A stretch of 64,000 nt of DNA from an uncultured Spirochaetota bacterium (GTDB lineage: Bacteria; Spirochaetota; Spirochaetia; SZUA-6; Fen-1364), in contig CAVWBF010000020.1 of assembly GCA_963753085.1 (NCBI GenBank), forward strand, positions 365-64,364, written 5' to 3'. Shown here one piece after another: positions 5,784 through 41,669 of this stretch; within the stretch, counting starts at the first letter, position 1, and each line of letters opens with the position of its first letter. The position numbers were made by a program, and so were the translations under genes. The notes under the pieces were generated by a model. It was not told where the DNA came from. It ran no database searches and saw only the letters and a list, made by a program, of their open reading frames with translations.

Positions 5784-6806
5784 TCACGCTGGATCGCCGA
5801 TCCTCCTCACACTGCGCCGTTCTACGAGCTTGCCGCCGATGAGCACCTTCACCGAGGGCATGCTGGCGTCGCACCGAAGGCGCGTGACGAGGAGCTGGAC
5901 GGCCATCCGGCCGATCTGGGCCTTCGAGACCTGCACTGTGGTGAGCGGCGGGTCGACGACCGCCGAGAGGGGGAGGTTATCGAAGCCGACTATGGACAGG
6001 TCATCGGGGACCCTGATCCTGGTGTCTGAGCAAGCCTTCAGGCAGCCGCTCGCAATGATGTCGTTGCCGCAGACGAGGGCCGTCGGGAGCCGCAGCCCCC
6101 CGCCGGCGAGGATGGCCTTCATGTCGTGGCAAGCACCGTGATAGGTCTGGTCCACGGAGAAGACGAAGGCCCGATCCACGTCGAGGCCGAGCCTGCCAAG
6201 CCCCGCGTAGAATCCCTCCTCGCGCAGGTGGATGTTTCGCGTCTCGACGGCCGCGCGGACGAAGCCGATCTTGCGGTGGCCCATGGCGTGGAGGTGGGAC
6301 AGGATGAGGAAGACGGAGTCCTCGTTGTTCATGTCGACGAAGTCGAAGTCCAGGAACTCGTGGTAGGTGTCGAGGAAGACGAGGGGCTTGCGCAGCCGGT
6401 GGAAGCACTCGACCTCCTCGCGGCTCAGCTCGGTCCCGAGGACGACGAAGCCGTCCGAGGCCTTGCCAAGGGCGACGTCGAGAACCTGTTCCATCGGCGC
6501 CGGCGTGAAGGTGACGATCTCCAGAGCATAGCCCACCTGCTTCGCCTCGTGGCTGAGCCCCTCTATGTAGTCCGCGATGAAAACGTCATGATCGCGATTG
6601 ACCGTGTGGCCATGTCGAGCGATGTGGAGGAGGCAGAGCGAGCCGGCCCTGGCGCCCTTCGGGGCCGCATACCCGAGATCCTTCGCCGTGCGCAGAATCC
6701 GCTCGCGCAGCTTTTCCCCGGCGCCCGGCTTGTTGTTGAGGACGAGCGACACCGTGGTCGGCGAGACGCCGACGGCCACGGCGATGTCCTTCACACGAAC
6801 GCTCAT
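5784..6806 (-). CDS. LacI family regulator
   Basis: HTH MSVRVKDIAVAVGVSPTTVSLVLN and C-terminal VPDDLSIVGFDN...PPLTTV. Confidence 0.92.
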   Translation of the reverse strand: MSVRVKDIAVAVGVSPTTVSLVLNNKPGAGEKLRERILRTAKDLGYAAPKGARAGSLCLLHIARHGHTVNRDHDVFIADYIEGLSHEAKQVGYALEIVTFTPAPMEQVLDVALGKASDGFVVLGTELSREEVECFHRLRKPLVFLDTYHEFLDFDFVDMNNEDSVFLILSHLHAMGHRKIGFVRAAVETRNIHLREEGFYAGLGRLGLDVDRAFVFSVDQTYHGACHDMKAILAGGGLRLPTALVCGNDIIASGCLKACSDTRIRVPDDLSIVGFDNLPLSAVVDPPLTTVQVSKAQIGRMAVQLLVTRLRCDASMPSVKVLIGGKLVERRSVRRIGDPA

Positions 6807-6839
6807 CCCATTACCGACCTTTCTTTGCGTATAGCGCAC

Positions 6840-6968
6840 AGAGTAGGGTCGAAAAGGCTATTTGTCAAGAAAAACTGAATGTTTAGTAAATGTCTCCGCG
6901 CTTCAAGACCTTTTTCTGCTTATGCATTACTAAATTCAGCTTGACAGGATGGATACCAATGATAGACT
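6840..6968. promoter_or_regulatory. Divergent sigma70-like promoters with a candidate inverted operator pair
   Basis: Plus strand: TTGACA(6941)-N16-TAGACT. Minus strand: TTGACA(6868-6863)-N17-TACTCT. Inverted elements CTGAATGTTTAGTAAATG and CATTACTAAATTCAG lie between them. Confidence 0.55.
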
Positions 6969-7002
6969 TCTCCCATCTTTGATTCAAAGGAGGAGGACAA
7001 AG

Positions 7003-8037
7003 ATGAAACGAACACTGCTTATCGTCGTATCGCTCGCGCTCGTCTTCATGCTCGCCGTGCCGCTCTTTGCTCAGAACTATGATCCCATGAAGTTCAAGTC
7101 TTCCAAGCCGCAATCGGCCTGGAAGATCGCCCTTGTGCCCAAGGACGCCACGAACGCCTGGTTCGTCCGGATGGAGGTCGGCGTCAAGCAGTTCGCCAAG
7201 GACACCGGCATCAACACCTTCCAGAAGGGCCCCGCCAAGACCGACGCTGCCATGCAGGCCCAGGTCATCGAGGACCTCATCGCGCAGGGCGTGGACGCCA
7301 TCTGCGTCGTGCCGGTCGATCCCTCGGCCCTTGAGCCCGTCCTCGGCGAGGCGCTGTCGAAGGGCATCGTGGTCATCGACCACGAGGGCGCTACCCAGCA
7401 GAACTGCCTCTACGACATCGAGGCCTTCTCCAATGAGGGCCTGGGCCAGACGATCATGCAGGAGCTGGCCAAGATGATGGGGAGCAAGGGTGTCTACACG
7501 ACGATGGTCGGCAACGTCACCAACGCCTCCCACAACGAGTGGGCCGACGCCGGCGTCGCCTACCAGAAGGCGCACTACCCCAACATGACCCTCCTCGCCG
7601 CCGAGCCCAGGGTCGAGATCATGGACAACCTCGACACCGCCTATCAGCGGGCCAAGGAGCTGTTCAAGAAGTATCCCAACCTCAAGGGCATCCTCGGTAC
7701 CTCGTCGCTCTCGGTACCGGGCACAGCACGTGCCATCGAAGAGCTCGGCCTGAAGGGCAAGGCTTTCGTGACCGCCGTAGGCCTGCCCAACGAGTGTGCG
7801 CCCTTTATCAAGGACGGGACCGTCGACGGCGTTCTCCTTTGGGATCCGAGGGACGCCGGTTACGCGCAGCTCGCCATGGCTGTCGCCGTCCTCAAGGGAG
7901 AGAAGGTCGCCAACGGCCTCAACCTGAAGGCTCCGGGCTGGACCAAAATGAAGTTCGCCCCCGGCTCCACCAAGATTCTCCAGGGCCAGGGGTGGATCAC
8001 GATCAACAAGAAGAACGTTGACACATTCGGGTTCTAA
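7003..8037 (+). CDS. Sugar ABC transporter substrate-binding protein (LsrB/RhaS-like, CUT2)
   Basis: Signal peptide, IALVPK...WFVRMEVG, QAQVIEDLIAQGVDAICVVPVD and LWDPRDAGY; AGGAGGAGG RBS. Confidence 0.88.
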   Translation: MKRTLLIVVSLALVFMLAVPLFAQNYDPMKFKSSKPQSAWKIALVPKDATNAWFVRMEVGVKQFAKDTGINTFQKGPAKTDAAMQAQVIEDLIAQGVDAICVVPVDPSALEPVLGEALSKGIVVIDHEGATQQNCLYDIEAFSNEGLGQTIMQELAKMMGSKGVYTTMVGNVTNASHNEWADAGVAYQKAHYPNMTLLAAEPRVEIMDNLDTAYQRAKELFKKYPNLKGILGTSSLSVPGTARAIEELGLKGKAFVTAVGLPNECAPFIKDGTVDGVLLWDPRDAGYAQLAMAVAVLKGEKVANGLNLKAPGWTKMKFAPGSTKILQGQGWITINKKNVDTFGF

Positions 8038-30196: not shown

Positions 30197-31049
30197 GCTC
30201 CTGGCCCTCGGGTTGCTTCTGTTCCTGGCCCTGCAGGGATTCACTCAGGACCTGTCGGCTTTTGCGGCGTACCTGTTGAGAAGCGAAGATTATTTCCGGG
30301 CCGTGACGGTGTACAAGGAGCTTGGTTTTTTCGCCTCAGACCCCCAGACTTTATCCAGGGCCCGGATAGGGGAGGGCCTGGCCTATCTCTTATCAGGCAA
30401 ATCGGACCTGGCTTTGGAACCACTGTCCGCTGAAGCGCAAAACGATCCCGAGGGGACGGCCCGGCTCCTCATGGGGCTTTGCTACCTCCGGCAGAGGAAC
30501 CTGTCTCAAGCCGACACCGTGTGGGGGCAGGAACCCCTGCCCAGGCCGACCCCGGAAGCCGCCCGACAGACTTTTCGGGCGTTGTTCCTATTGTCGCTGG
30601 ACAGGACAGCGACTGCCCGAGACATCCTGGCGGCAATTCCACCGGGCACTCTATGGGACGATGCAGTCGTGCAAGGAAAGGTGGTTGTGGGGCAACTGGA
30701 AACCCGGCCCAGGTTCAGCCCGTGGGTGGCAGGCGCTGCCAGCCTCCTGATCCCCGGGCTGGGTCAGATCACCACCGGGCATTATGTCGACGGCGCGCAG
30801 GCTTTCGCCACTGTCGGCCTTCTGGGGGCGGCGACCTATGGGGTTTACCTCTACGATTCCAAGTGCTCATCCAGCTATCTCTACACGGGCATAGGCCTGG
30901 TAATAACCGCTTCTTTCCATGTGGCAAATATTGTTGGCGCCGCAAAAACCGCGGGCTATGCCAACCAGGCCGCCACGGACCGGATCCTGGTCCCCTGGGA
31001 GAAAGAGCTCTGGTCTCACCTGGTCCTGGAGATCCTCGGCGCGCCCTGA
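30171..31049 (+). CDS. TPR-containing membrane-associated protein
   Basis: Signal-like start, TPR-like helices (EDYFRAVTVYKE, ARLLMGLCY) and a C-terminal SLLIPGLGQ hydrophobic region. Confidence 0.7.
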   Translation: MMTTSSKTRLLALGLLLFLALQGFTQDLSAFAAYLLRSEDYFRAVTVYKELGFFASDPQTLSRARIGEGLAYLLSGKSDLALEPLSAEAQNDPEGTARLLMGLCYLRQRNLSQADTVWGQEPLPRPTPEAARQTFRALFLLSLDRTATARDILAAIPPGTLWDDAVVQGKVVVGQLETRPRFSPWVAGAASLLIPGLGQITTGHYVDGAQAFATVGLLGAATYGVYLYDSKCSSSYLYTGIGLVITASFHVANIVGAAKTAGYANQAATDRILVPWEKELWSHLVLEILGAP

Positions 31050-31082
31050 CAAAGGCCAGCCCGCGCCACTCAGAGACAAAAC

Positions 31083-31808
31083 ATGAAGAGGGTATCGCAG
31101 GTGAAGAAGAAAACAGTCGTCCTCCAGGACCCATCCTGGAAGCTTCTCTACGGGGCCGGGAGCCTGTCATCGCTTCTCTACGTTCTTCTCATAGCGGTGC
31201 CGCTTGTGCTCGTCTTCTCGGTGCCCCAGCCGCCGACTTCGGGCGGCGCCGCTGTCCTCAATTACATCGCCTCGCACAAGGCGGCCTACGTCATCGAGCT
31301 GGTTTGCTTCGTGGGACTGAGCCTCCCCGTCCTAGTGGTTTTTCTCGCTCTCTTTGCGGCTTTGAGGCCCCTCGACAAGAACCTTGCGGCGATAGGCGCA
31401 CTGATTGGAATTGCCTCGGAAGTTGTTGCGCTTGCCCTCGGCAGCAGTCCTCCATCCCTCCACGGCGGCCTGGTGTATCTCAGCGACCAGTATGCTGCCT
31501 CAACCGCGGTGGTGGACCGGGCTGCTCTTGCATCCGCGGCGGACGCCCTCATTGCCGCGGCCAACGCCGTCTCCGCCGCCGGGATACTGACAGCCGCCGG
31601 CATCCTGATCCTGTCGCTTGTCATGAGGAAAGGCATTTTCAGCAGATGGGTCGCCTGCGTGGGCATCGCAACAGGCGCGGTCGGAATCATCAGCGAAGCA
31701 TTCCGGCCCATGATAGGCTTTGCCTACAGCCTGTACGGGCTTCTCCTTCTTGCCTGGTTTATCCTTGTGGGACTGGGGCTCCTCAAGCTCTCAAGGGAAA
31801 AGTCGTGA
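31083..31808 (+). CDS. DUF4386-like multi-pass membrane protein
   Basis: 241 aa with about 5 TM segments and a C-terminal LLLAWFILVG. Confidence 0.6.
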   Translation: MKRVSQVKKKTVVLQDPSWKLLYGAGSLSSLLYVLLIAVPLVLVFSVPQPPTSGGAAVLNYIASHKAAYVIELVCFVGLSLPVLVVFLALFAALRPLDKNLAAIGALIGIASEVVALALGSSPPSLHGGLVYLSDQYAASTAVVDRAALASAADALIAAANAVSAAGILTAAGILILSLVMRKGIFSRWVACVGIATGAVGIISEAFRPMIGFAYSLYGLLLLAWFILVGLGLLKLSREKS

Positions 31809-31843
31809 CGTCCGGGCTCGGATTCAAAAATCGGGAGGTGTGT

Positions 31844-32329
31844 ATGCGTCAGAACTTTCTAACGGCCATGCTTGCAGTGGTCCTGCTGGCTGCCGGGCCG
31901 GCTGCGGTAGCGGGCGCGGATTCCACGGAAGCGGCCGTCGCGGCCATCAGGCAGGTCTGGGCTAATTACGCCAGCTTCGTCGAGACGGGGGACTCGGCGG
32001 AGTGGTTGTCCCAGTACGATGCGGAGGGCATTCAAATGCGGCCGGAGAGTCCCGCCCGCGGGAGACCTGAGCTCGATGCCTTTGTCCTCAAGTCATGGAA
32101 ATCGCGGATGGACGCTTTTGACACGAGGATGAGCATCACGCCTCTCGAAATCGTGGTTACGGGACCGTGGGCTTTCTCCCGGGGAGTGTTCACGCAGGAC
32201 TTGATTGCGAAGGACACGCAGAAAACGGTTCATGTCGACGGCAAGTTCCTGACCATCCTCCGGCAGCAAAGCGATGGTTCCTGGAAGATCTACCGGGACT
32301 GCTTCAACTCGAACGTGCCCGCGAAATAG
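31844..32329 (+). CDS. Exported SnoaL/NTF2-like (DUF4440/YybH) protein
   Basis: GGAGG RBS, signal peptide, EIVVTGPWAFSRG and GKFLTILRQQSDGSWKIYRD. Confidence 0.8.
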   Translation: MRQNFLTAMLAVVLLAAGPAAVAGADSTEAAVAAIRQVWANYASFVETGDSAEWLSQYDAEGIQMRPESPARGRPELDAFVLKSWKSRMDAFDTRMSITPLEIVVTGPWAFSRGVFTQDLIAKDTQKTVHVDGKFLTILRQQSDGSWKIYRDCFNSNVPAK

Positions 32330-32340
32330 GGGACCGGCTT

Positions 32341-33294
32341 TCATTTCTTCCGCCGTGAAAGAACCGCCGCCAGGATGATGAGGCCCTTGATGATCTGCTG
32401 GTAGTAGGACTGGACATTGTACTGGTTGAGCAGGTTGTCGATGACTCCCAGGATGAGCACGCCCCAGAAGGTCCCGATGGCTCCGCCGCCGCCGCCGCCG
32501 AGGATGCCCCCTCCAATGACCACGGCAGCAATTGCGTCGAGCTCGAAACCCGCGCCGAAGCTGGGTTGCGCTATTCCCAGCCGGGAGGAGAGGAGCACTC
32601 CCGCCATCGCGGCGAAGAACCCGCAGAGTATGTAGGCCAGGAGCAGGTGTCCCTTGACGTTGATGCCGGCAAGGCGCACCGCTTCCTCGTTGCCGCCTAT
32701 GGCCACCACGGCGCGGCCCGGGATGGTCCGGTTGAGGAAGACCCAGATGACGGCAAAGCAGGCCACCATGATGACAGAGGCCGTGGGCACCGGGCCGATG
32801 AAACCCCCGCCGAGCAGGGCGCGGAAAGCCGGGTTGACCGGTGTCTGGGGTGTCTCTGAGAATACGTAGGTCACTCCTCGAACCACTCCCATGGTGGCGA
32901 GGGTCACGATGAAGGGCTGCAGCTTGAACCGGGCAATGAAGAAGCCGTTTGCTCCTCCCACGGCAATCCCGACGGCAAGCGCAACGAGAATAGCCGCGGG
33001 CATCGGCATCTGTTTCTGGAGACCGGTGGCCATGATCCCGCACAGGGCGACGGTTGATCCCACCGACAGGTCGACACCCCCCGTCAGGATAACGACGAGC
33101 ATGCCGATGCTGATGAGGCCGTTGGTGACGATCTGTCGGGATATGTTGATGAGGTTCCGCGACGTGAAGAACGTCTCCGAAACCACGGAGCTGATCATGA
33201 TCAGCACCACGAAGATCCCGACGAAAGCGAAGTCCGACCACCGGATCCTCGCCGTTTCTCTCATCCTCACCATGAACGGAGCCGCCGCTTTCAT
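32341..33294 (-). CDS. Sugar ABC permease (RbsC-like)
   Basis: GGVDLSVGS, AIGGNEEAVRLAG and ELDAIAAVVIGG. Confidence 0.92.
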   Translation of the reverse strand: MKAAAPFMVRMRETARIRWSDFAFVGIFVVLIMISSVVSETFFTSRNLINISRQIVTNGLISIGMLVVILTGGVDLSVGSTVALCGIMATGLQKQMPMPAAILVALAVGIAVGGANGFFIARFKLQPFIVTLATMGVVRGVTYVFSETPQTPVNPAFRALLGGGFIGPVPTASVIMVACFAVIWVFLNRTIPGRAVVAIGGNEEAVRLAGINVKGHLLLAYILCGFFAAMAGVLLSSRLGIAQPSFGAGFELDAIAAVVIGGGILGGGGGGAIGTFWGVLILGVIDNLLNQYNVQSYYQQIIKGLIILAAVLSRRKK

Positions 33295-34805
33295 GTTTGT
33301 CCCTCGCCTTTGGTGACCCCCGCAGCGCGCTGGAGGAGCGCCTCTTCGCTCGCCTCGGCCCTCATCAGGTTTGCCACGAGCTTTCCTTCCCGCATGACGA
33401 GGATCCGGTCGCTCATGCCCAGCACCTCCGGCATCTCGGAGGAAATGAAGAGAACCCCCACTCCCTCGTCGGCCAGGTTGTTGATAAGATGGTAGATCTC
33501 GACCTTCGCCCCAATGTCCACCCCGCGTGTCGGCTCGTCAAGGAGCAGCACTTTCGGCCGGGACAGGAGCCACTTGGCAAGGACAACTTTCTGCTGATTG
33601 CCGCCGCTCAGGGTCCGCACGGGCTTCCCGATGACCGGCGGCCGCACCCCGAGGGCCTCTACCTTCTCCTGGACCAGCCGCCGCTGCTCTGCGCGATCCA
33701 GGAACCCGCCCCGGCTCATGCGGGGGAGAGCGGCGAGGCTCACGTTGTCGCGGACCGTCTCGCTCATCACCAGGCCGTCGCGCTTTCGGTCTTCCGTGAC
33801 CAGGGATATCCCCGCATTCACCGCGTCGCGAGGGGAGCGCAGGCGCACCTGTTTTCCCTCGATGCGGACGCTTCCCGCGGTGGCCGGCTCTGCGCCGAAG
33901 ATGCCGCGTGCCACAGCGGTCCTCCCGCTGCCGACAAGGCCGAACATCCCCACGATCTCGCCGCGGCGCAGGGAGAACGTGACGTTTCGGTACTCACCCT
34001 CCCGGCAGAGGTCCTCCACGCGCAGGATCTCCGCGCCCGGGGGCGTCGATCGCCGGGGGTAGATTTCCTCCATTGAACGTCCCACCATCATGCGGATCAG
34101 TTCGTTCTGATCCACGGACCTCCTGGGCACGGTGTCCACCAGCTCGCCGTCGCGGAGCACCGTGATGCGGTCCGCAATCTCGAAGACCTCTTCCAGGCGG
34201 TGAGAGATGTAGAGCACCAGCGTGTTGTCGGCTTTGAGCCGTCGGATCAGGGAGAAAAGCGTGGCCAGCTCGTCCTTGGAGAGCACCGCCGAAGGCTCGT
34301 CCAGGATCAGGATCTTCGGTTTTTCCGCAAGAGCCTTGGCGATTTCCACGATCTGCTGGTGAGAGACGCTGAGCCGTGAAACCCGCGATCGGGCGTCCAG
34401 CGCCATGAACCCCAGCTCTGTGAGGATATTTCGAGCCCTGACGTGGGCTTCCGGCCAGTCGATCCAGAAGCCCTGGCGGTTGGGCAGCTTCCCTATCAGG
34501 ATGTTTTCGGCAACGCTCAGGTGCGGAACAAGGCTGAACTCCTGGTGCACCGCGCGGATGCCGAGCCGGTTGGCCTGCTGAGGAGTGTTCATGGTCACGG
34601 GTGCGCCGTTGATCGTGATCTTTCCGGAGTCCGGCATGATTGCTCCGGAAAGGACATTCATCAGCGTGGACTTGCCCGCGCCATTCTCTCCAACCAGAGC
34701 GTGGATCTCGCCGAGCCCGGCGGACATGCTCACGTTCCTCAGCGCGACGGTGCCCCCGAACCTCTTGTGGATTCCTTCCATTGACAGGAAGCAGCCTCCG
34801 TTCAT
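33291..34805 (-). CDS. Sugar ABC ATP-binding protein (RbsA-like)
   Basis: GENGAGKS, ILDEPS, LSGGNQQKV and LDEPTRGVDIG. Confidence 0.93.
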   Translation of the reverse strand: MNGGCFLSMEGIHKRFGGTVALRNVSMSAGLGEIHALVGENGAGKSTLMNVLSGAIMPDSGKITINGAPVTMNTPQQANRLGIRAVHQEFSLVPHLSVAENILIGKLPNRQGFWIDWPEAHVRARNILTELGFMALDARSRVSRLSVSHQQIVEIAKALAEKPKILILDEPSAVLSKDELATLFSLIRRLKADNTLVLYISHRLEEVFEIADRITVLRDGELVDTVPRRSVDQNELIRMMVGRSMEEIYPRRSTPPGAEILRVEDLCREGEYRNVTFSLRRGEIVGMFGLVGSGRTAVARGIFGAEPATAGSVRIEGKQVRLRSPRDAVNAGISLVTEDRKRDGLVMSETVRDNVSLAALPRMSRGGFLDRAEQRRLVQEKVEALGVRPPVIGKPVRTLSGGNQQKVVLAKWLLSRPKVLLLDEPTRGVDIGAKVEIYHLINNLADEGVGVLFISSEMPEVLGMSDRILVMREGKLVANLMRAEASEEALLQRAAGVTKGEGQT

Positions 34806-36250
34806 GTGTCTGCCCCGGGAAACGCGTTGTGAAAGAGAACGACTTTCTGTTCGGTCATCTCCTCCAGCGTGTCATGAATCCCCTCGCGGCCGTACCCGCT
34901 CATCTTCGTGCCTCCAAAGGGGAGATTTTCCGACCGCAGAGCTGAAGACCAGTTCACAATGACTCCCCCCACCTCGAGCCTGCGGGCCATGCTGAGGGCC
35001 CGGGAGATGTCGTTTGTGAACACGGCTGCCTGCAGCCCGAAGGAGCTGTCATTCGCCATTGCCACCGCCTCGTCGTCCCCTGAAAACGAAACGACAGGCG
35101 CAACCGGACCGAATGTTTCCTCCCGGAACAGCGGAACCTCGGGCGGCACATCGACAAGCACCGTCGGAGTGATAAATGATCCGCGGCGTTCCCCGCCACA
35201 GGCGAGGCGCGCGCCGGCCTTCACAGCCTCCGCGATTGCATCCTCCACCTTTCGTGCCGCTTGCTCGCTGATCAGGGGGCCGACGTCCGTCTCCTCGCAG
35301 AGCTGGTCTCCCACGCGGAGCGCCTTCGCTTTTTCGCAAAGGCGCGCGCAAAAATCGCCATATACCCTGCGATCCACGAAGACTCTCTTCACGGCGCAGC
35401 AGATCTGGCCGTTTCCCCGGGCCAGGCGGCCCAGGACTACTGCCTCCGCGGCCTTTTCCAGGTCGGCGTCTGCGCAGACGATCGTGGCGTCGTTGCCGCC
35501 GAGCTCCAGGTGGATCTTCTTGAGTGTTTCCGCTCCGATGGTCGCTATCCTGATCCCCACCGCCGTGCTCCCCGTGATGGAAACAAGCCGTACGATCGGG
35601 CTTCGGGCCAAGAGCTCTCCGACCAGCTGACCCGGCCCCGTCACCATCTGGTGCGCGGCGCGGGGGAGGCCCGCCTCCTCCAGGATGGCCGCTATACGCA
35701 GGAGGGTCAGGGGGCAGGCGCTGGGCGGTTTCGCAACGACGGCGTTGCCCGCCGCCAGCGCGGGAGCTGCCTTGTGGGCGTACAGCTCCACGGGATAGTT
35801 GAACGGAACAATCGCTGCCACGACGCCCAGGGGCTGGCGGACGGTCATGGCAAAATGCCTCTCGTTGCCGGGCACGGCATCCATGGGAAAGGTCCTGCCG
35901 AAGATCCTGCGCCCTTCCTCGGCGAAGCCCCGGAATATCCGGGACGTCACTTCCACCTCGTCCCTTGTCTGTCGGATGGGCTTGCCGTTTTCGCGTGCCA
36001 GGAGCGTAGCGAGCTCCTCCCTGCGCTCGTGGATTGCCTCCGCGGCTGCTGTCAGGACAGCGGAGCGCGCGTGCGCCGGCATGGCGCGCATGCGGCGGCT
36101 GCCCTGGGCGGCTGCGCGCAACGCGCGCTCCACGTCTGACGGGGTTGCCACGGGAACGGTCTCGATCTGCTCTCCTGTCCCGGGATTCCGCACGTTCAGG
36201 ACCTTGCCGTCGCCTGAATCCACCCACTGGCCGTCGATGAGCATTTCCAT
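34802..36250 (-). CDS. NAD(P)-dependent aldehyde dehydrogenase
   Basis: IVPFNYP, ITGSTAVG, LELGGND, catalytic GQICCA and EETFGPV. Confidence 0.92.
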   Translation of the reverse strand: MEMLIDGQWVDSGDGKVLNVRNPGTGEQIETVPVATPSDVERALRAAAQGSRRMRAMPAHARSAVLTAAAEAIHERREELATLLARENGKPIRQTRDEVEVTSRIFRGFAEEGRRIFGRTFPMDAVPGNERHFAMTVRQPLGVVAAIVPFNYPVELYAHKAAPALAAGNAVVAKPPSACPLTLLRIAAILEEAGLPRAAHQMVTGPGQLVGELLARSPIVRLVSITGSTAVGIRIATIGAETLKKIHLELGGNDATIVCADADLEKAAEAVVLGRLARGNGQICCAVKRVFVDRRVYGDFCARLCEKAKALRVGDQLCEETDVGPLISEQAARKVEDAIAEAVKAGARLACGGERRGSFITPTVLVDVPPEVPLFREETFGPVAPVVSFSGDDEAVAMANDSSFGLQAAVFTNDISRALSMARRLEVGGVIVNWSSALRSENLPFGGTKMSGYGREGIHDTLEEMTEQKVVLFHNAFPGADT

Positions 36251-36270
36251 GTTGATCTCCAGAGAAAGAA

Positions 36271-36299
36271 TCCCGGCCCCCCGCGAAGGGAGGCCGGGG
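36271..36299 (-). terminator. Hairpin after the binding-protein gene
   Basis: On the minus strand CCCGGCCTCCC-ttcgc-GGGGGGCCGGG, followed by ATTCTTTCT. Confidence 0.55.
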
Positions 36300-36306
36300 A
36301 AAGATC

Positions 36307-37260
36307 CTAGAACACGCTCTCGGGAATGTAGAACCTGGCCACGTTGTCGATCGTGATCAGGGGTGAAGGCAGAACCGTGTCCTTCTCCGCCTGCGCACCG
36401 GCCAGGAGCGACATGAGGCGCGTGAACCCAGCGCGGCCGATCTGGTCGGAGCTGTTCAGCCCTGTGCAGGCATAGTTGGTCTTGTTCATGATCTGCTCAA
36501 GGGCGGCTTTCTCGCCGTCCACGCCGGCGATGAAGATCTGTTTCGTGCGGCCGGCATCGCCAATGGCCTTCTGGGCGCCGAGCGCCATGGAGTCATTCTC
36601 AGCAAAGACGGCGTCGATCTGCTTGTACTTGGCGAGCAAGTCCTCCATGAGCTTGAATCCGCCGTCGGAGCTCCATCCGCCGAAGTTGGGCGCCATGACG
36701 ACGTCGATCTTGCTCTTCTTCACCTCGGAGAGCATGCCGTTCGTGCGGTCCAGACCGATGGAGTTGTCAGCCGGTCCTCCGCGCAGCACTACCAGCCGGC
36801 CTTTGCCGCCGAGGCGCTTCACGATGTACTGGCCGTCCTGCTTTCCGATTGTCAGGTTGTCGGGGCCGACCCAGCTGGTGTAGTCCCCGCCCTTGAGCTT
36901 GCGGTCGACAAGGACCACCGGAACGCCCGCCCGCTGGATGGCGTCCAGGGCCTCGGGGGCGGCTTCGAGCCATGCCGCGCTGATGATGAGGCCGCTCACG
37001 TTCTGGGCGAGGACATCTTCAACGTCCGAGGTGAGCTTTTGCGCGTCTCCCTTGGCGTCGGTGGTGATCACCTTGATGTTGGCGAAATGGTCTGCTTCCT
37101 GCTTCACTGCCTGGGACATGCCGATGAAGTACGGGCTGGTGAGCGCGAGGTTCACCATCCCGATCTTGATCTGGCCCTTTCCCTGCGCCGCCGCGGAAGT
37201 GGCGGAGAATGCCAGCGCAACCGCGCAGGCGATGAATACGAGGAACCCGAGCTTTTTCAT
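36307..37260 (-). CDS. Sugar ABC substrate-binding protein (RbsB-like)
   Basis: Signal MKKLGFLVFIA, VVLVDRKL, VFAENDSMALGA and IAGVDG. Confidence 0.9.
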   Translation of the reverse strand: MKKLGFLVFIACAVALAFSATSAAAQGKGQIKIGMVNLALTSPYFIGMSQAVKQEADHFANIKVITTDAKGDAQKLTSDVEDVLAQNVSGLIISAAWLEAAPEALDAIQRAGVPVVLVDRKLKGGDYTSWVGPDNLTIGKQDGQYIVKRLGGKGRLVVLRGGPADNSIGLDRTNGMLSEVKKSKIDVVMAPNFGGWSSDGGFKLMEDLLAKYKQIDAVFAENDSMALGAQKAIGDAGRTKQIFIAGVDGEKAALEQIMNKTNYACTGLNSSDQIGRAGFTRLMSLLAGAQAEKDTVLPSPLITIDNVARFYIPESVF

Positions 37261-37318
37261 AAGTCTCCCCTTTCGATTGGAATAGCCGGAAAACTTCCGG
37301 CCGTGGCTCTCAGGAGAC

Positions 37319-37335
37319 TGCAGGTACTGTGCCAA
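37319..37335 (-). promoter_or_regulatory. Sigma54 (-24/-12) promoter of the ABC/ALDH operon
   Basis: Minus-strand TTGGCACAGTACCTGCA has GG and GC separated by exactly 10 nt, 59 nt upstream of the binding-protein ATG. Confidence 0.75.
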
Positions 37336-37418
37336 GGCGGACCGGCCGAAAGAGAATTACAGGAGAGTGATGTAATTTACTGTATCACAGCATCTTATGA
37401 GACAGGAAAGAAAAAGCG

Positions 37419-37448
37419 TTGACAGCCGGGAGAGGCCGAAGGTATAGT
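37419..37448 (+). promoter_or_regulatory. Sigma70 promoter of the regulator pair
   Basis: TTGACA-N18-TATAGT. If it is real, the regulator starts downstream of 37451. Confidence 0.55.
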
Positions 37449-37450
37449 GC

Positions 37451-38854
37451 TTGTGTAGAAATTACTCACCTTGCGGAGCCGCCTTGGGTAATATCGACGA
37501 GCAGCGCGCCAGGTCCAATCTCCTCATCATCGACGACAAGGTGAAGCTGTGCAGAAGCCTTGCGCGCAACTTCGAGCACGTGGGGTTCACCACATCGATC
37601 GCCACCTCGGGTCAGGAAGCCCTGTCCCGTTTTTCGGCAACGAGGATGGACGCCGTCCTGCTGGACATCATGCTGGGAGAGGAAAGCGGCATCGATGTTC
37701 TCAAGAAGCTCCTTGCCGTGGACAAGAACGTGCCCGTCATCATGATCACGGCCTACGCCTCTGTGGACAGCGCCGTTCAGTCTCTCAAGCTTGGCGCTTT
37801 CGATTACGTGAAAAAGCCGCTGGACTTCGACGAACTTTTGAAAACGGTTGAGAGGGCATGTGAGTTCTCCCGGCTCCGCGACGAGAATGTGCGGCTGAGA
37901 AACCGCCTCAAGGAGCTGTCCGCGACCATCGTGACGGGAGATTCGCGAATGGGCGCCCTCGTGCGCAAAGTGGAAAAGCTGGCCGCCACGGATCTTCCCG
38001 TGCTGATCTGCGGGGAAAGCGGGACGGGGAAAGAAGTGCTTGCCGACTATGTCCACGCCGCCTCGGCCCGAAGCGCCATGCAGATGGTGAAGATCAACTG
38101 CGTCGCGTTTCCAGAGACTCTCCTCGACAATGAGCTTTTCGGTCATGAGAAAGGCGCATACACGGGGGCGGATTCCGTCTTCAAGGGATTGTTCGAGAAG
38201 GCGGATCGAAGCACCCTTTTCCTCGACGAGATCGGGGACATGCCGCTCAGCATCCAGGCCAAGATCCTCAGGACGCTTCAGAACAACGAGATCAGGCGCC
38301 TGGGCGGAAACGAGACCATCCGAGTGAACGTTCGGTTCATCGCCGCGACGAACAAGGACCTGGGAGACCTGATAGGAAAAGGCCAGTTTCGGGAGGACCT
38401 TTACTACCGGCTGAACGCCGCGGTGCTTTCCATCCCCGCCCTGAGGGAGCGCCGCGACGACATCCCGCTTCTCGTGGAGCACTTCCTTGCAGAGCGGTCG
38501 CCCGGCGAGCCGGCCCCGGGCGGCCCCTCCCCGCGAAAGGAAATGACGGCCGAGGTCATGGCTCGGTTCCTCCAGTATGACTGGCCGGGGAATGTCCGCG
38601 AGCTGAAGAATGTCGTCAATTATGCCGCGGCGATGTCATCGGGAGACAGGATCGGCCTCGAGGACCTGCCTGTCCACTTCCTGGGGGGCGCGCGCATCGC
38701 GGGCAGCGGAAATATCCGCGAGGACATGGAGAGGGCGCTTATCCTCAAGATCCTCCAGGGCACCAAGTACAACCGCTCGAAGGCCGCCGATCTCCTGAAC
38801 ATGAGCCGAAAGACCCTGTACACCAAGATGGTGAAGTATGGTCTCAATTCCTGA
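37451..38854 (+). CDS. Sigma54-dependent response regulator (NtrC/AtoC type)
   Basis: REC (LLIIDD, LLDIML), AAA+ (GESGTGKE, GAYTGA, LFLDEIGD, WPGNVRELKN) and a Fis-type HTH. The true start is uncertain and may be a little downstream. Confidence 0.93.
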   Translation: MCRNYSPCGAALGNIDEQRARSNLLIIDDKVKLCRSLARNFEHVGFTTSIATSGQEALSRFSATRMDAVLLDIMLGEESGIDVLKKLLAVDKNVPVIMITAYASVDSAVQSLKLGAFDYVKKPLDFDELLKTVERACEFSRLRDENVRLRNRLKELSATIVTGDSRMGALVRKVEKLAATDLPVLICGESGTGKEVLADYVHAASARSAMQMVKINCVAFPETLLDNELFGHEKGAYTGADSVFKGLFEKADRSTLFLDEIGDMPLSIQAKILRTLQNNEIRRLGGNETIRVNVRFIAATNKDLGDLIGKGQFREDLYYRLNAAVLSIPALRERRDDIPLLVEHFLAERSPGEPAPGGPSPRKEMTAEVMARFLQYDWPGNVRELKNVVNYAAAMSSGDRIGLEDLPVHFLGGARIAGSGNIREDMERALILKILQGTKYNRSKAADLLNMSRKTLYTKMVKYGLNS

Positions 38855-40757
38855 CGCTGTTTCGGGGGGAAGCGAGCTGCTGCGGCTGGAGCACGTGTCC
38901 CTGGAGTACGGCCAGGTCGAAGCGCTCAAGGACGTCAGCCTTACCCTCCATCCCTCCACTGTCCATGCCGTTGTCGGCGAACACGGGGCCGGAAAATCCT
39001 CCCTCGGCATGGTGATAAGCGGAAACGTGAGGCCGCGAACGGGTTCCCTGTGGTACGCCAACCGGCGGTTCGACGCGCTCAGCACCCGTTCCGCTCACCG
39101 CCTGGGCATCGAGATGGTGTACCAGCAGGTGCAGCTCAACGATTTCTTTTCCGTCGCGGAAAACATTTTCTTTCTGAACAGGCAACTTGCGCGGCACGGG
39201 CTTCTCAGCCAGAGGCAGATCGTCCGGGAGGCGCACGCTTTTCTCGAGGCGGGCGGATTCACCCTGGATCCGCTGGCCACCGTGAAGAACCTCAACCTCC
39301 CCGACCGGGTGCTCATCTCCATTCTCTCGGCCCTTCAAAAGCGCCCCCGGCTTCTCATCCTGGACGAAGCGCTGGAGAAGCTGTCCTCCACGGATTTCCC
39401 TCGAGTGCTCCGCGCGGTGAACCGGATGAAATCCGAGGGGATGGCCGTCCTCTTCATCACACATCGCATCGACGACGTCTATGACATCGCCGACCGCGTG
39501 AGCATTGTGAAAAACGGCGAGGTGCTCGTGACCGACGACGTCGGGCATATCGACAAGATGAACCTCCTGCGGCTGACGTACACGCAGGTGTATTCCCTGG
39601 AGGAGTCGGGAAACCGCAAGCGTGAGTTCAACCAGTTCCTCAAATACAATGAGGCTGTCCTTCTCAATCTTCCCGTCAACCTCATCGTGGTGGACGGAGA
39701 AGAGCGGGTGAAGATCGTCAACGAGCGGTGCAAGGAGTATTTCCACCTGGGAGACGCGGCAATTGCCAATCAGCCCCTGGAGCGGCTCCTGGGCCCGGCG
39801 AACGGGGAAACCCTGGCTCTTATTCGGGAAGCCTTCCGATCCGAGGAGGGCAACGCTTTCTACCACGTCCCGCTGGTCATCGCGGGCGACGACACGGTGA
39901 ACAACGTGCGAACCCTCCCGATCTACGATGAGGAGCATCTCATCGGGAACATCATCATCATCGAAGACGTAACCGAGTTCGACAAGCTGCAGAAGCAGGT
40001 CATCCTGTCGGAGAAGCTCGCCTCCGTTGGGCTCCTTGCGGCCGGGGTGGCGCACGAGATCAACAACCCCCTTGAAATCGTCTACAACTACCTCAAGTAC
40101 ATCAAGTTCTCCTTCGACGATGCCCGGCTTCATGAGACGGTGGACGAGCTGCACGAGGAGATCACGTACATCGCGGGGATCGTCCGCGATCTCCTCTCCC
40201 TCTCCGGGACGGCCCAGGTGGAACGGGAAGAGATCGACATCAACGATATGATCAAGAGCACCATGAGCCTCCTCCGCCACAGCGCGCGGGACAAGGGCAT
40301 CAGGATCGATTTCAGCTCTTCCGAGCAGATGCTCACGCTGAAGGTCAACCGCAATGAGATCAAGCAGGTGATCCTCAACCTCGTAAAGAACAGCTTCGAG
40401 GCGATGCCCGCCGGCGGTGAGATCCGCATCGAAACGCTCCTGGGGACGGACCAGCGCGGGATTCCCTGCGCGTCCATCGTTTTCACGGATACCGGCACGG
40501 GGATCCCGGAGGCGAACCTCGGCAATGTTTTTGTTCCTTTCTACTCGACCAGAAAGGGAACAGGTGACCATGTCGGTCTGGGATTGTCGATCTGTTACGG
40601 GATTGTCAGGCGCCACGACGGGAGCATGACCGTGAAGAACCTCGAGCGGGCGGGATGTCAGTTCACGATTCGGCTGCCTCTCACGGAGGCGCCGGCCCGG
40701 GAGGGGGCATCGAGGATGGAAAAAAGAGGCGAGGGGAGAGCCGTAGATCAAAGGTAA
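38838..40757 (+). CDS. Fusion of sugar-ABC ATPase domain, PAS and histidine kinase
   Basis: The N-terminus has GEHGAGKS, VYQQ, LLILDE and FITHRID. A PAS-like LPVNLIVVD...IVN follows, then H-box AHEINNPL, N-box NLVKNSFEAM, DTGTGI and GLGLSICYGIV. It is one continuous 639-aa frame. Confidence 0.88.
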   Translation: MVSIPDAVSGGSELLRLEHVSLEYGQVEALKDVSLTLHPSTVHAVVGEHGAGKSSLGMVISGNVRPRTGSLWYANRRFDALSTRSAHRLGIEMVYQQVQLNDFFSVAENIFFLNRQLARHGLLSQRQIVREAHAFLEAGGFTLDPLATVKNLNLPDRVLISILSALQKRPRLLILDEALEKLSSTDFPRVLRAVNRMKSEGMAVLFITHRIDDVYDIADRVSIVKNGEVLVTDDVGHIDKMNLLRLTYTQVYSLEESGNRKREFNQFLKYNEAVLLNLPVNLIVVDGEERVKIVNERCKEYFHLGDAAIANQPLERLLGPANGETLALIREAFRSEEGNAFYHVPLVIAGDDTVNNVRTLPIYDEEHLIGNIIIIEDVTEFDKLQKQVILSEKLASVGLLAAGVAHEINNPLEIVYNYLKYIKFSFDDARLHETVDELHEEITYIAGIVRDLLSLSGTAQVEREEIDINDMIKSTMSLLRHSARDKGIRIDFSSSEQMLTLKVNRNEIKQVILNLVKNSFEAMPAGGEIRIETLLGTDQRGIPCASIVFTDTGTGIPEANLGNVFVPFYSTRKGTGDHVGLGLSICYGIVRRHDGSMTVKNLERAGCQFTIRLPLTEAPAREGASRMEKRGEGRAVDQR

Positions 40758-40796: not shown

Positions 40797-41669
40797 CTAC
40801 CTGAACAGCTGCAGGACCGTCTGCGGCTTCGTGTTGGCCTGGGCCAGCATGGCGGTGGAGGACTGCACGAGGATGCGGTCCTTCACGAACTCCACCATCT
40901 GCGCCGCCATGTCGGTGTCCCTGATGAGGCTCTCCGCGGCCTGGAGGTTCTCCGCTCCTACCGCCAGCCCCTTCATGGCGTACTCCAGCCTGTTCTGGTA
41001 GGCCCCCAGGTCGGCGCGCTGCTTGTTGACGATCTTCAGCGCGTGGTCCAGCACCCCGATAGCCGCGTTGGCGTGATCCGGGGAGGACAGGGAGATGAAG
41101 GTGGCGTTGGCCGGCAGGCCGTTGGCCCCCTGGATTCCCAGCCCCTGGGCGGTCATGGTGCCGATGAACACGCGGGTGCGCTGGTCCATGTTGGCCCCGA
41201 TCTGCAGCCACATGCTGCCGGTGATGGCGTTCTCTCCCGTGGAGCGGGCAAAACGGCCGGTGAGCATGTTCATGCCGTTGAACTGGGCGTGGCTGGCGAT
41301 GCGGTTGACCTCGGCCACCAGGGCGGAGACCTCCACCTGGATCTGCATGCGGTCCTCGTCGGAGTAGATGCCGTTGGCCGCCTGCACGGAGAGCTCGCGC
41401 AGCCTCTGCATGATGTCCTGGCTCTCCTGGAGGTAGCCTTCTGCGGTCTGGATGAAGGAGATGCCGTTCTGGGCGTTGTTCTCCGCCTGGCGCAGGCCGC
41501 GGATCTGGCTGCGCATCTTCTCGGAGACCGCCAGCCCGGATGCGTCATCCCCCGCGCGGTTGATGCGCATGCCCGATGAGAGCTTCTCCATGTCCTTGTC
41601 CGCCTGGATGCCGTTGAAGAACAGCTGGCGGTCGGTGAAGAGAGCGCTCATGTTGTGATTGATGATCAT
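40797..41669 (-). CDS. flaB: Periplasmic flagellar filament core protein (flagellin)
   Basis: [40 protein letters not shown] and [12 protein letters not shown]; AAGGAGG RBS. Confidence 0.95.

Follow-up and report, generated by a model that had tools for sequence, protein, structure and literature searches.

What does the ATPase domain of a sugar importer do at the front of a soluble histidine kinase, and how would such a kinase receive its signal? The question is raised by a gene at positions 38838-40757 of a 64,000-nt stretch of contig CAVWBF010000020.1 (assembly GCA_963753085.1) from an uncultured Spirochaetota bacterium. This stretch is the whole of the DNA that was analysed and is called the window; all coordinates are positions in it, except where another contig or locus is named. 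Reading of the open reading frames (ORFs) and their domains showed that the region consists of two divergent units with six genes in total, and the view that the six genes form one self-contained regulatory module is strongly supported. One unit encodes a response regulator and the kinase, whose input domain is a nucleotide-binding domain (NBD) of an ATP-binding cassette (ABC) transporter, and the other is a sugar ABC operon of the CUT2 type. It is well supported that this regulator-kinase pair acts on the sigma-54 promoter next to it and thereby governs expression of the transporter operon. As for the signal, the reading that we favour, at a probability of roughly 0.45, is that the kinase dimer would dock its two NBDs on the coupling helices of the permease and so read the docking of the binding protein.

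The original prediction had described the kinase as a single unbroken frame that joins the NBD to a PAS segment, HisKA and HATPase_c without an obvious transmembrane helix, and the analysis agreed on each point. The 639-residue ORF matched the Pfam families ABC_tran at residues 30-179 (E 3.9e-20), PAS_4 at 277-381, HisKA at 398-456 and HATPase_c at 505-616, the last two above their cut-offs, and its maximum 19-residue Kyte-Doolittle mean was 1.39 against 2.45 for the permease. In NCBIfam, residues 14-259 aligned to model positions 1-245 of YtfR, AraG and XylG, which correspond to the first NBD (NBD1) of these tandem ATPases, and residues 268-617 aligned to AtoS; no NCBIfam model spanned the NBD-PAS-kinase architecture. 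The parts of the kinase gene are as follows.

38838-40757, plus strand: NBD-PAS histidine kinase, 639 amino acids, soluble (Pfam, NCBIfam, AlphaFold2, Foldseek, hydropathy)
38871-39566, plus strand: ABC NBD, kinase residues 12-243, derived from CUT2 NBD1 (Pfam, tree, motifs)
38976-38999, plus strand: Walker A (motif)
39123-39125, plus strand: Q-loop Gln (motif)
39291-39314, plus strand: degenerate signature (motif)
39351-39368, plus strand: Walker B (motif)
39462-39464, plus strand: H-loop His (motif)
39567-39662, plus strand: family-specific conserved linker, residues 244-275, NLLRLTYTQ ... EFNQFLKYNEAVLLNL (alignment)
39663-39977, plus strand: PAS domain, residues 276-380 (Pfam, AlphaFold2)
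39978-40685, plus strand: transmitter, DHp/HisKA and HATPase_c with N, G1, F and G2 boxes (Pfam, motifs)
40053-40055, plus strand: codon of the phospho-acceptor H406 (H-box reading)

The transmitter displayed the residues of class I (HisKA) kinases, namely AHEINNP with H406, NLVKNSFEA, DTGTGI, FVPFYST and GLGLS, and its identity as a complete class-I histidine kinase is strongly supported. All core features of the ABC_tran family (PF00005) were identified in the NBD: the A-loop aromatic residue Y24, Walker A GEHGAGKS (47-54), the Q-loop residue Q96, Walker B LLILDE (172-177) and FITHRID with the H-loop residue H209. The signature position is occupied by LNLPDRVL (152-159) in the window kinase and by L(N/S)LSDR in the family, and the D-loop region reads ALEKLS. 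Neither LSGGQ nor a SALD-type D-loop is therefore present, which makes the domain an ABC-fold ATP binder and not a canonical motor subunit. Nor is the protein a CUT2 tandem ATPase subunit, which has two NBDs, the second with LSGGNQQK; here a single NBD is followed by PAS and the kinase.

An AlphaFold2 model built with 119 homologues placed the NBD at residues 12-243 with a predicted local distance difference test score (pLDDT) of ∼90, followed by residues 244-271 of low pLDDT in the monomer and then by the PAS domain, a long DHp hairpin and the catalytic domain. Foldseek matched the N-terminal part to LptB (template modelling score 0.86), MJ1267, MetN and MalK, and the C-terminal half to YF1 and ThkA, of which ThkA (3a0r) was the best solved relative of the transmitter. 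Among the solved structures searched, none united an NBD with a PAS-kinase half. In the alignment, the first helix of the linker, NLLRLTYTQ, corresponds to ELIRMMVGR in the linker between NBD1 and the second NBD (NBD2) of tandem ATPases.

The kinase gene is preceded by the regulator gene, and the predicted overlap of the two was found: the regulator ORF ends at 38854, and 17 nt are shared with the kinase gene, whose ATG is at 38838. The regulator ORF opens at 37451, and alignment with the orthologues pointed to the TTG at 37484 as the most likely real start. Its product matched REC, Sigma54_activat (E 5e-65), AAA_lid_14 and HTH_8 in Pfam and contained the motifs GESGTGKE, GAYTGA (a variant of GAFTGA) and LFLDEIGD. 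By these sequence features it is an NtrC-family sigma-54 enhancer-binding response regulator, for which phosphorylation and DNA binding are predicted; that the partner of the kinase is an enhancer-binding protein of the NtrC type is strongly supported. The same holds for the transcription of the two genes as one unit from a sigma-70-type promoter; the sequence TTGACAG...TATAGT faces the regulator with 11 of 12 consensus matches, and its TTGACAG is invariant in the orthologues.

The divergent operon had been credited with a -24/-12 promoter, and this was recovered at 37319-37334 (minus strand) as TGGCAC-AGTAC-CTGCA; the ATG of the binding-protein gene follows ∼60 nt downstream. The predicted sigma-54 promoter, TGGCACAGTACCTGCA, agreed with the consensus (GG-N10-GC, TGGCAC-N5-TTGCW) at 10 of 11 positions, and its orientation and distance were correct. 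The intergenic region was aligned between the window and four orthologous modules (kinases 68-84% identical, mean column identity 67%), and the TGGCA and TGC of the element were invariant in all five. The genome also encodes sigma-54 itself (rpoN, positions 6794-7270 of contig C2). It is strongly supported that the NtrC-type partner faces the predicted sigma-54 promoter, which would drive the operon of binding protein, aldehyde dehydrogenase, ATPase and permease. Given this layout of kinase, activator and sigma-54 promoter, phosphotransfer from the kinase to the regulator most likely induces the transporter operon. The remaining features of the module are listed below.

37484-38854, plus strand: sigma-54-dependent response regulator with REC, AAA+ (GAYTGA) and HTH_8 (Pfam, orthologue alignment)
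37419-37448, plus strand: sigma-70-type promoter TTGACA-18-TATAGT of the regulator-kinase operon (orthologue alignment)
37319-37334, minus strand: predicted sigma-54 promoter TGGCACAGTACCTGCA (-24 GG, -12 GC) of the ABC operon (consensus scan, orthologues)
36307-37260, minus strand: periplasmic sugar-binding protein (Peripla_BP_4, RbsB-like), 317 amino acids (Pfam/NCBIfam)
34802-36250, minus strand: aldehyde dehydrogenase; the best model is lactaldehyde dehydrogenase, below that model's cut-off (Pfam/NCBIfam)
33291-34805, minus strand: tandem CUT2 transport ATPase NBD1-NBD2, AraG/XylG/RbsA-like, NBD2 with LSGGNQQK (Pfam/NCBIfam)
32341-33294, minus strand: CUT2 permease (BPD_transp_2, RbsC/AraH-like) (Pfam/NCBIfam)

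The binding-protein gene starts with the ATG at 37260, which is preceded by GGGGAG. The last three genes of the minus-strand operon, for the aldehyde dehydrogenase, the ATPase and the permease, are joined by ATGA overlaps. The best NCBIfam models for the transport ATPase were AraG, XylG and RbsA at 532-553 bits, all below the equivalog cut-offs.

A fusion of this kind could arise from a misassembly, which the original prediction had named as a possible refutation, and its recurrence was followed in protein databases. Among 5.8 billion proteins searched, there were more than 4000 matches. In the best 120, which were inspected and ranged from 84% to 47% identity, every full-length match had the architecture ABC_tran(+PAS)+HisKA+HATPase_c at 595-637 amino acids, and the two shorter ones were fragments. 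They came from independent assemblies, including metagenome-assembled genomes of Spirochaetia, KSB3, Vecturithrix, Moduliflexus and Desulfomarina. Since the same architecture recurs in more than 100 independently assembled homologues, a misassembly is excluded. The uncharacterised homologues that had been suspected are thus numerous in databases, where they are named only "histidine kinase" or "ATP-binding cassette domain-containing protein". No characterised kinase built on an NBD was found in the literature searched in full text, in agreement with the original prediction.

The linker and PAS domain (residues 235-399) were used as a family probe against 1.84 billion representatives at 50% identity, which gave 114 clusters at E<=1e-10 and 319 at E<=1e-3. 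Nearly all full-length matches were 600-625 amino acids long, with the match at about residues 230-395, and the NBD was present in 87 of the 90 full-length representatives. The distribution within Spirochaetota was patchy (11 of 401 genomes, 9 of 153 genera). The genome of the window itself holds three copies, the window kinase and two paralogues. These paralogues, at 241747-243588 of contig C11 (L094) and 75467-77302 of contig C10 (L095), are 48% and 31% identical to it, and each adjoins its own CUT2 operon, with an SGL lactonase at one and FGGY kinases and a SorC-type regulator at the other. The transport ATPase of the C11 module is present as two ORFs (286 amino acids for NBD1, 245 for NBD2), which reflects either a frameshift or a genuine split.

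Conserved gene neighbourhoods can indicate which system a kinase serves, and the linkage test that had been proposed was carried out on 29 kinase copies at 28 loci, using tblastn with the window proteins and a -24/-12 scan. The sample comprised the window, the two paralogues, look-ups of distant homologues, six loci from a genome scan and twelve from a survey of Spirochaetota; it covered four Spirochaetota families, KSB3/Vecturithrix and other phyla (family codes f2, f3, f19, f40, f54 and others). The scan of genome contigs used the generic H-box pattern AGVAHEIN, by which 74 of 80 loci proved to be ordinary kinases and L001-L005 and L047 were kept. A sigma-54 activator lay directly upstream of the kinase in all 29 copies, and a CUT2 tandem ATPase with a BPD_transp_2 permease lay within ∼6 kb in 28 of them, as the linkage idea had called for. 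The neighbouring operon was preceded in 29/29 cases by a GG-N10-GC element that agreed with the consensus at 9 or more of 11 positions; the chance rate, taken from the overall hit density, is ∼0.02 per intergenic region. As the window's own genome contains 49 CUT2 ATPases in 3.64 Mb, or about one per 74 kb, the adjacency is far beyond chance.

The module was mostly divergent, with tandem or convergent arrangements at L005, L047 and the C10 paralogue. The accompanying enzymes varied between aldehyde dehydrogenase, Gfo/Idh/MocA with AP_endonuc_2, FGGY kinases and SGL lactonase, which means that the substrates differ between modules. The orthologues of the window kept the six-gene unit, with different sequence on both flanks. 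No locus had a permease and binding protein without a transport ATPase; what looked like such cases turned out to have a frameshifted or partly matched ATPase. At L047 (4947-11791), two regulator-kinase modules stand back to back in divergent orientation, each with a sigma-54-promoted CUT2 operon, which shows a local duplication of the whole module. We also considered whether kinase-linked transporters always have a single permease gene, as a match to a symmetric dimer; this was ruled out by L117 and L124, which have two. Most kinase-linked operons had one, and the background in the window's own genome was 21 single versus 25 double.

To place the kinase NBD among its relatives, a tree was built from 227 NBDs, comprising all ABC NBDs of the window's genome together with the NBDs from the loci and from the alignment of the family. 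All 40 kinase NBDs fell on one branch (SH-like 99), which sits within a clade holding all 59 NBD1 of tandem ATPases and two single NBDs (SH-like 94). An IQ-TREE analysis rooted on NBD2 recovered the same kinase clade (SH-aLRT 98), with the NBD1 of kinase-adjacent ATPases scattered. The monophyly of the kinase NBDs and their nesting in CUT2 NBD1 indicate that the domain was captured once, anciently, and then travelled with the kinase. Recent copying of NBD1 from the adjacent ATPase into each kinase was ruled out by this monophyly and by the scattering of the neighbouring NBD1.

A comparison of alignment columns revealed which positions the kinase clade has kept: Y24, the P-loop (with Asn49 replaced by His), Q96 with SVAEN, D176-E177 and H209. 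The signature reads LSGGNQQK in NBD2 (100%), LS(V/I)(A/G)QQQ in NBD1 and L(N/S)LSDR in the kinases, where the third Gln is not conserved. The claim that the signature is degenerate like that of NBD1 in RbsA-type ATPases was thus borne out, the kinase signature being even more degenerate. The DEPT(S/A)(S/A)L(T/S) of tandem ATPases has become DEALEKLS, and the positions that face NBD2 are altered, namely the third Gln (from 93% to variable), P178A, T179L, the D-loop and the lost E186 and L190.

Across 119 sequences down to 47% identity, VGEHGAGKS, Q96 and LLILDE were invariant or nearly so; H43, H49 and ALEKLS are invariant residues specific to the family. In the 29 copies, the Walker A Lys was found in 28/28, the Q-loop Gln and the Walker B Asp each in 29/29, the Walker B Glu in 26/29 (lost in L117, L124 and L125) and the H-loop His in 23/29. 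Among the 87 representatives from the 50% clustering, Lys was kept in 94%, Asp in 97%, Glu in 90%, His in 81% and Gln in 72%. LSGGQ was never observed in either set. Because Walker A is kept while Glu or His is lost in some lineages, the conserved property is ATP binding and not hydrolysis. Hydrolysis by the NBD is thus dispensable in some lineages, and a canonical sandwich dimer of the NBD with itself is unlikely on these residues. The most variable part of the kinase was the Q-loop and helical subdomain, with 36% identity between the two main groups versus 46-64% elsewhere, and the PAS domain was not hypervariable though the operons carry different catabolic enzymes.

As the kinase has no membrane or periplasmic part, we infer that it receives its signal through the NBD. 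The docking that we favour is a transporter-coupled contact, proposed from synteny and sequence constraints. The kinase would dimerise through its DHp helices and thereby present two identical NBD1-like domains, in the manner of MalK2. With ATP bound, these NBDs would dock on the cytoplasmic coupling helices of some CUT2 permease dimers and replace the transport ATPase there. A sugar-loaded binding protein on the periplasmic face would then shift the conformation of the permease and change the distance between the NBDs, and the conserved linker helices would relay this change to the PAS/DHp dimer, switching the balance of kinase and phosphatase activity. The NBD would act as an ATP-binding switch rather than a motor, since it lacks LSGGQ and has lost the catalytic Glu or His in some lineages.

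Docking is favoured because the kinase has no other access to the periplasm and because its NBD is specifically the subunit by which a transporter is coupled to the membrane. The Q-loop/SVAEN segment couples NBDs to permeases in ABC importers generally, and it is this region, facing the transmembrane domain, that has been kept while the positions facing NBD2 have changed. The symmetry of an NBD dimer also matches that of a kinase dimer, as it does in MalK2 with its C-terminal regulatory domains, and by this analogy the two-fold axes of the two dimers may coincide. We further suggest, tentatively, that the chassis of an ABC importer could serve here as a signalling-only transmembrane receptor, in which a sub-population of permeases would carry the signature-less kinase NBDs, docking of the binding protein outside would close these NBDs inside and so act on the kinase via the linker, ATP would act as a structural switch and a soluble kinase would sense a periplasmic ligand.

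Several points weigh against docking. Each linked operon has its own complete ATPase, with which the kinase NBD must compete, and the closure of an NBD homodimer by ATP is doubtful without a signature motif. A partner that supplies LSGGQ would more readily account for the retention of Glu (90%) and His (81%). The variability of the helical subdomain carries little weight, because this subdomain is the most variable one in ABC NBDs generally. Ranked against non-cognate NBD1, the similarity between a kinase NBD and its cognate NBD1 reached a mean percentile of 0.71 overall and 0.66 in the helical subdomain, a weak signal with an excess of ∼2% identity that is not segment-specific and may be an effect of composition. 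One locus, L125, is the sole exception to the linkage and has the regulator-kinase pair and the sigma-54 promoter with no CUT2 operon nearby. A sequence search of the solved structures found no CUT2 permease.

The kinase might instead sense a cytoplasmic signal and never touch the transporter. The PAS domain or the NBD would bind the imported sugar or a catabolite, or an NBD homodimer would report ATP/ADP or act as a dimerisation or timer module, and the CUT2 linkage would then reflect the target of regulation only. A soluble protein with PAS, the usual cytoplasmic ligand sensor, suits this role, and a universal Walker A together with hydrolytic residues that are dispensable in some lineages fits a nucleotide sensor. 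The absence of an adjacent transporter at L125 points the same way, and KdpD already provides the case of a kinase whose input domain binds ATP through a P-loop. The P-loop of KdpD is mentioned in PMC8214093. We nevertheless regard cytoplasmic sensing as unlikely, given that an energy sensor yields no sugar specificity and that the PAS domain is well conserved (46-53% identity) across modules with aldehyde dehydrogenase, Gfo/Idh/MocA with AP_endonuc_2, FGGY kinases or SGL lactonase. It also leaves unexplained why the NBD is a CUT2 NBD1 that has kept its Q-loop and helical subdomain, and why 28 of 29 copies adjoin a CUT2 transporter and none another transporter type. To induce a high-affinity importer by its own internal substrate pool would moreover be a weak design, though it is known in some systems.

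The original prediction had offered, beside docking, a heterodimer of the kinase NBD with the transport ATPase. In the form considered here, the partner would be NBD2, so that the kinase Walker A and LSGGNQQK would form the one consensus ATP site of CUT2 and the ATPase cycle would be read or modulated. The half-site of NBD1 is kept exactly in the kinase (A-loop, Walker A, Q, Walker B D-E and H), and its NBD is signature-less like NBD1, next to an NBD2 with LSGGNQQK in 100% and a degenerate Walker A; the high retention of Glu and His likewise suggests a partner bearing a signature. Such pairing would require an outside NBD to beat a tethered competitor, as NBD1 and NBD2 of the transporter are one polypeptide, and it would use an interface that is altered in the kinase (third Gln, P178A, T179L, D-loop, loss of E186/L190). 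A symmetric kinase dimer is also ill-suited to an asymmetric 1:1 heterodimer, and some lineages have lost Glu or His. Because the ATPase is a covalent tandem and the NBD2-facing positions have changed, heterodimerisation is less likely than docking, and we consider it rather improbable. It could finally be argued that the NBD is a decayed relic without a sensing role, with the kinase constitutive or set by its expression level or by PAS. The degenerate signature and the loss of catalytic residues in some lineages would agree with decay; the strong constraint on VGEHGAGKS, Q96 and LLILDE, the Walker A Lys at 94% family-wide and the invariant H43, H49 and ALEKLS, which indicate a new selected function, make it very improbable.

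Transporter-dependent sensing is an established idea, with Bce, Pst/PhoU, MalK-MalT and DctA-DcuS as examples. In function, the module comes nearest to Bce-type modules, MalK-MalT, PhoR-PhoU-PstB and the SLC5-domain kinases CbrA/CrbS; by descent, its nearest relatives are CUT2 NBD1 domains and transmitters and regulators like AtoS/AtoC. To our knowledge, the kinase and the transporter are always separate proteins in the characterised cases, and their contact has been hard to define. BceS is a two-transmembrane kinase that contacts the FtsX-type permease BceB, a protein with a large extracellular domain, and acts with an OmpR-type regulator. BceRS-BceAB resembles the present system in that a histidine kinase without its own sensory domain relies on an ABC transporter and the regulator induces the operon of that same transporter. 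It differs in that BceS is a membrane protein with an intramembrane contact and no fused transporter domain, and in that a resistance or export transporter and a sigma-70 promoter stand in place of the soluble kinase, importer NBD and sigma-54 promoter described here. With no transmembrane helix in the kinase and a permease of the BPD_transp_2 family, the NBD-kinase module lies outside the Bce modules, as it does outside the canonical ABC motor subunits, though it may work like Bce in the broad sense of sensing that depends on a transporter. Papers on Bce systems include PMC9169098 and PMC7438565.

In the Pst system, PhoR is membrane-anchored and needs the adaptor PhoU. PhoR-PhoU-PstB shares with the present module a PAS-containing kinase that senses, through the NBD, which state an ABC importer is in, and differs in its separate proteins, the need for PhoU, the membrane anchor and an OmpR-type regulator. 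MalK2 (MalK-MalT, EIIAGlc) and the trans-inhibition of MetN and ModC offer a symmetric dimer of importer NBDs with a C-terminal regulatory module, and MalK, the NBD of a sugar importer, links the transporter state to gene expression. MalK is a true motor with intact LSGGQ that signals by sequestration of MalT and not by phosphotransfer, whereas the kinase NBD comes on top of those of the transporter, has no signature and carries a whole PAS-histidine kinase as its appended module.

The evolutionary source of the input domain is NBD1 of the CUT2 (TC 3.A.1.2) ATPases RbsA, AraG, XylG, MglA and YtfR, with which it shares the GE(N/H)GAGKS P-loop, the Q-loop, DE, the H-loop and a non-canonical signature; in the kinase no NBD2 follows, Asn49 is His, the signature is more degraded and the linker leads into PAS. 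AtoS/AtoC, ZraS/ZraR and NtrB/NtrC have a homologous PAS-HisKA-HATPase_c transmitter and REC-AAA+-HTH_8 activator with unrelated input domains and targets. The best NCBIfam scores were 216 bits to AtoS and 429 bits to AtoC, where the equivalog cut-offs are far higher (646 and 714). CbrA and CrbS (SLC5 domain-STAC-kinase) likewise join a transporter-derived domain and a histidine kinase in one protein and govern genes of uptake or catabolism, in part via sigma-54 activators (CbrB), the fused part being the membrane permease of a secondary transporter and not, as here, the soluble ATPase domain of a primary ABC importer. CrbS has been described as an SLC5-domain kinase (PMC5715377).

In the present family, the transporter's own coupling domain is fused to the kinase in a compact, soluble and conserved protein within a self-contained six-gene module. 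Should docking on the permease prove right, this would be the first ABC importer serving as a signal-transducing receptor. It would also provide a direct and genetically simple system for the cytoplasmic readout of conformational changes in ABC transporters, and a modular design for sugar biosensors, from binding protein, permease and NBD-kinase to a sigma-54 promoter. If the NBD is a nucleotide sensor instead, it would represent a new class of kinase input domain. Under both readings, the annotations "ATP-binding cassette domain-containing protein" and "histidine kinase" miss the likely role.

Some further observations concern the wider genome and the exceptional locus. The window's genome, at 77% completeness, carries a very high load of sugar ABC systems, with the 49 tandem CUT2 ATPases accompanied by ∼119 permease ORFs of the BPD_transp_2 type; an 858-residue ORF (contig C14, plus strand, offset 382676) has both NBDs and is long enough for an ATPase-permease fusion. 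At L125 (contig C31 of genome G143, 6560-7320), the sigma-54 promoter faces ∼700 nt of non-coding DNA, in which the 27-nt direct repeat agtcatcttgcgaccagcacaggttgc occurs twice, followed by a gene for a Big_5/Ice-binding-like secreted protein. In the genus of L125, which also includes L124, the kinase NBD has lost three residues, namely Glu of Walker B, His of the H-loop and Tyr of the A-loop.

The module is bordered on one side by a 616-residue ORF (30479-32329, plus strand), which has no Pfam match and is perhaps not a gene, as further long ORFs overlap it, and on the other by a convergent flagellin gene (Flagellin_N/C; 40797-41669, minus strand). Within the operon, a strong GC-rich hairpin with an 11 bp stem, 10 G-C pairs and a T-rich tail lies between the binding-protein stop and the aldehyde dehydrogenase start (36272-36298, minus strand). 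Many ABC operons have such an element to raise the binding protein above the other products, and this one probably acts likewise, as a partial terminator or as a stabiliser of the mRNA.

In the intergenic region, an Rfam search found no match, and no enhancer (upstream activating sequence) motif common to the loci was definable by eye in the orthologue alignment, without motif discovery. The 5' leader of the binding-protein gene contains the palindrome GGAAAACTTCC, which is invariant in the five orthologues. It forms the core of the inverted repeat GCCGGAAAACTTCCGGC (37285-37301, minus strand), between the -12 element of the sigma-54 promoter and the ribosome-binding site of the binding-protein gene. 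The outer stem of this repeat covaries, from CCGG/CCGG to CTGG/CCAG in L098 and TCGG/CCGA in L090, and the repeat may serve either as a hairpin that stabilises the 5' end or as the operator of a different regulator. Just 3' of the -10 element of the regulator-kinase promoter, the block GTAGAAATTACTCAC (37450-37470, plus strand) is nearly invariant in the five orthologues and could be an autoregulatory operator or a leader element.

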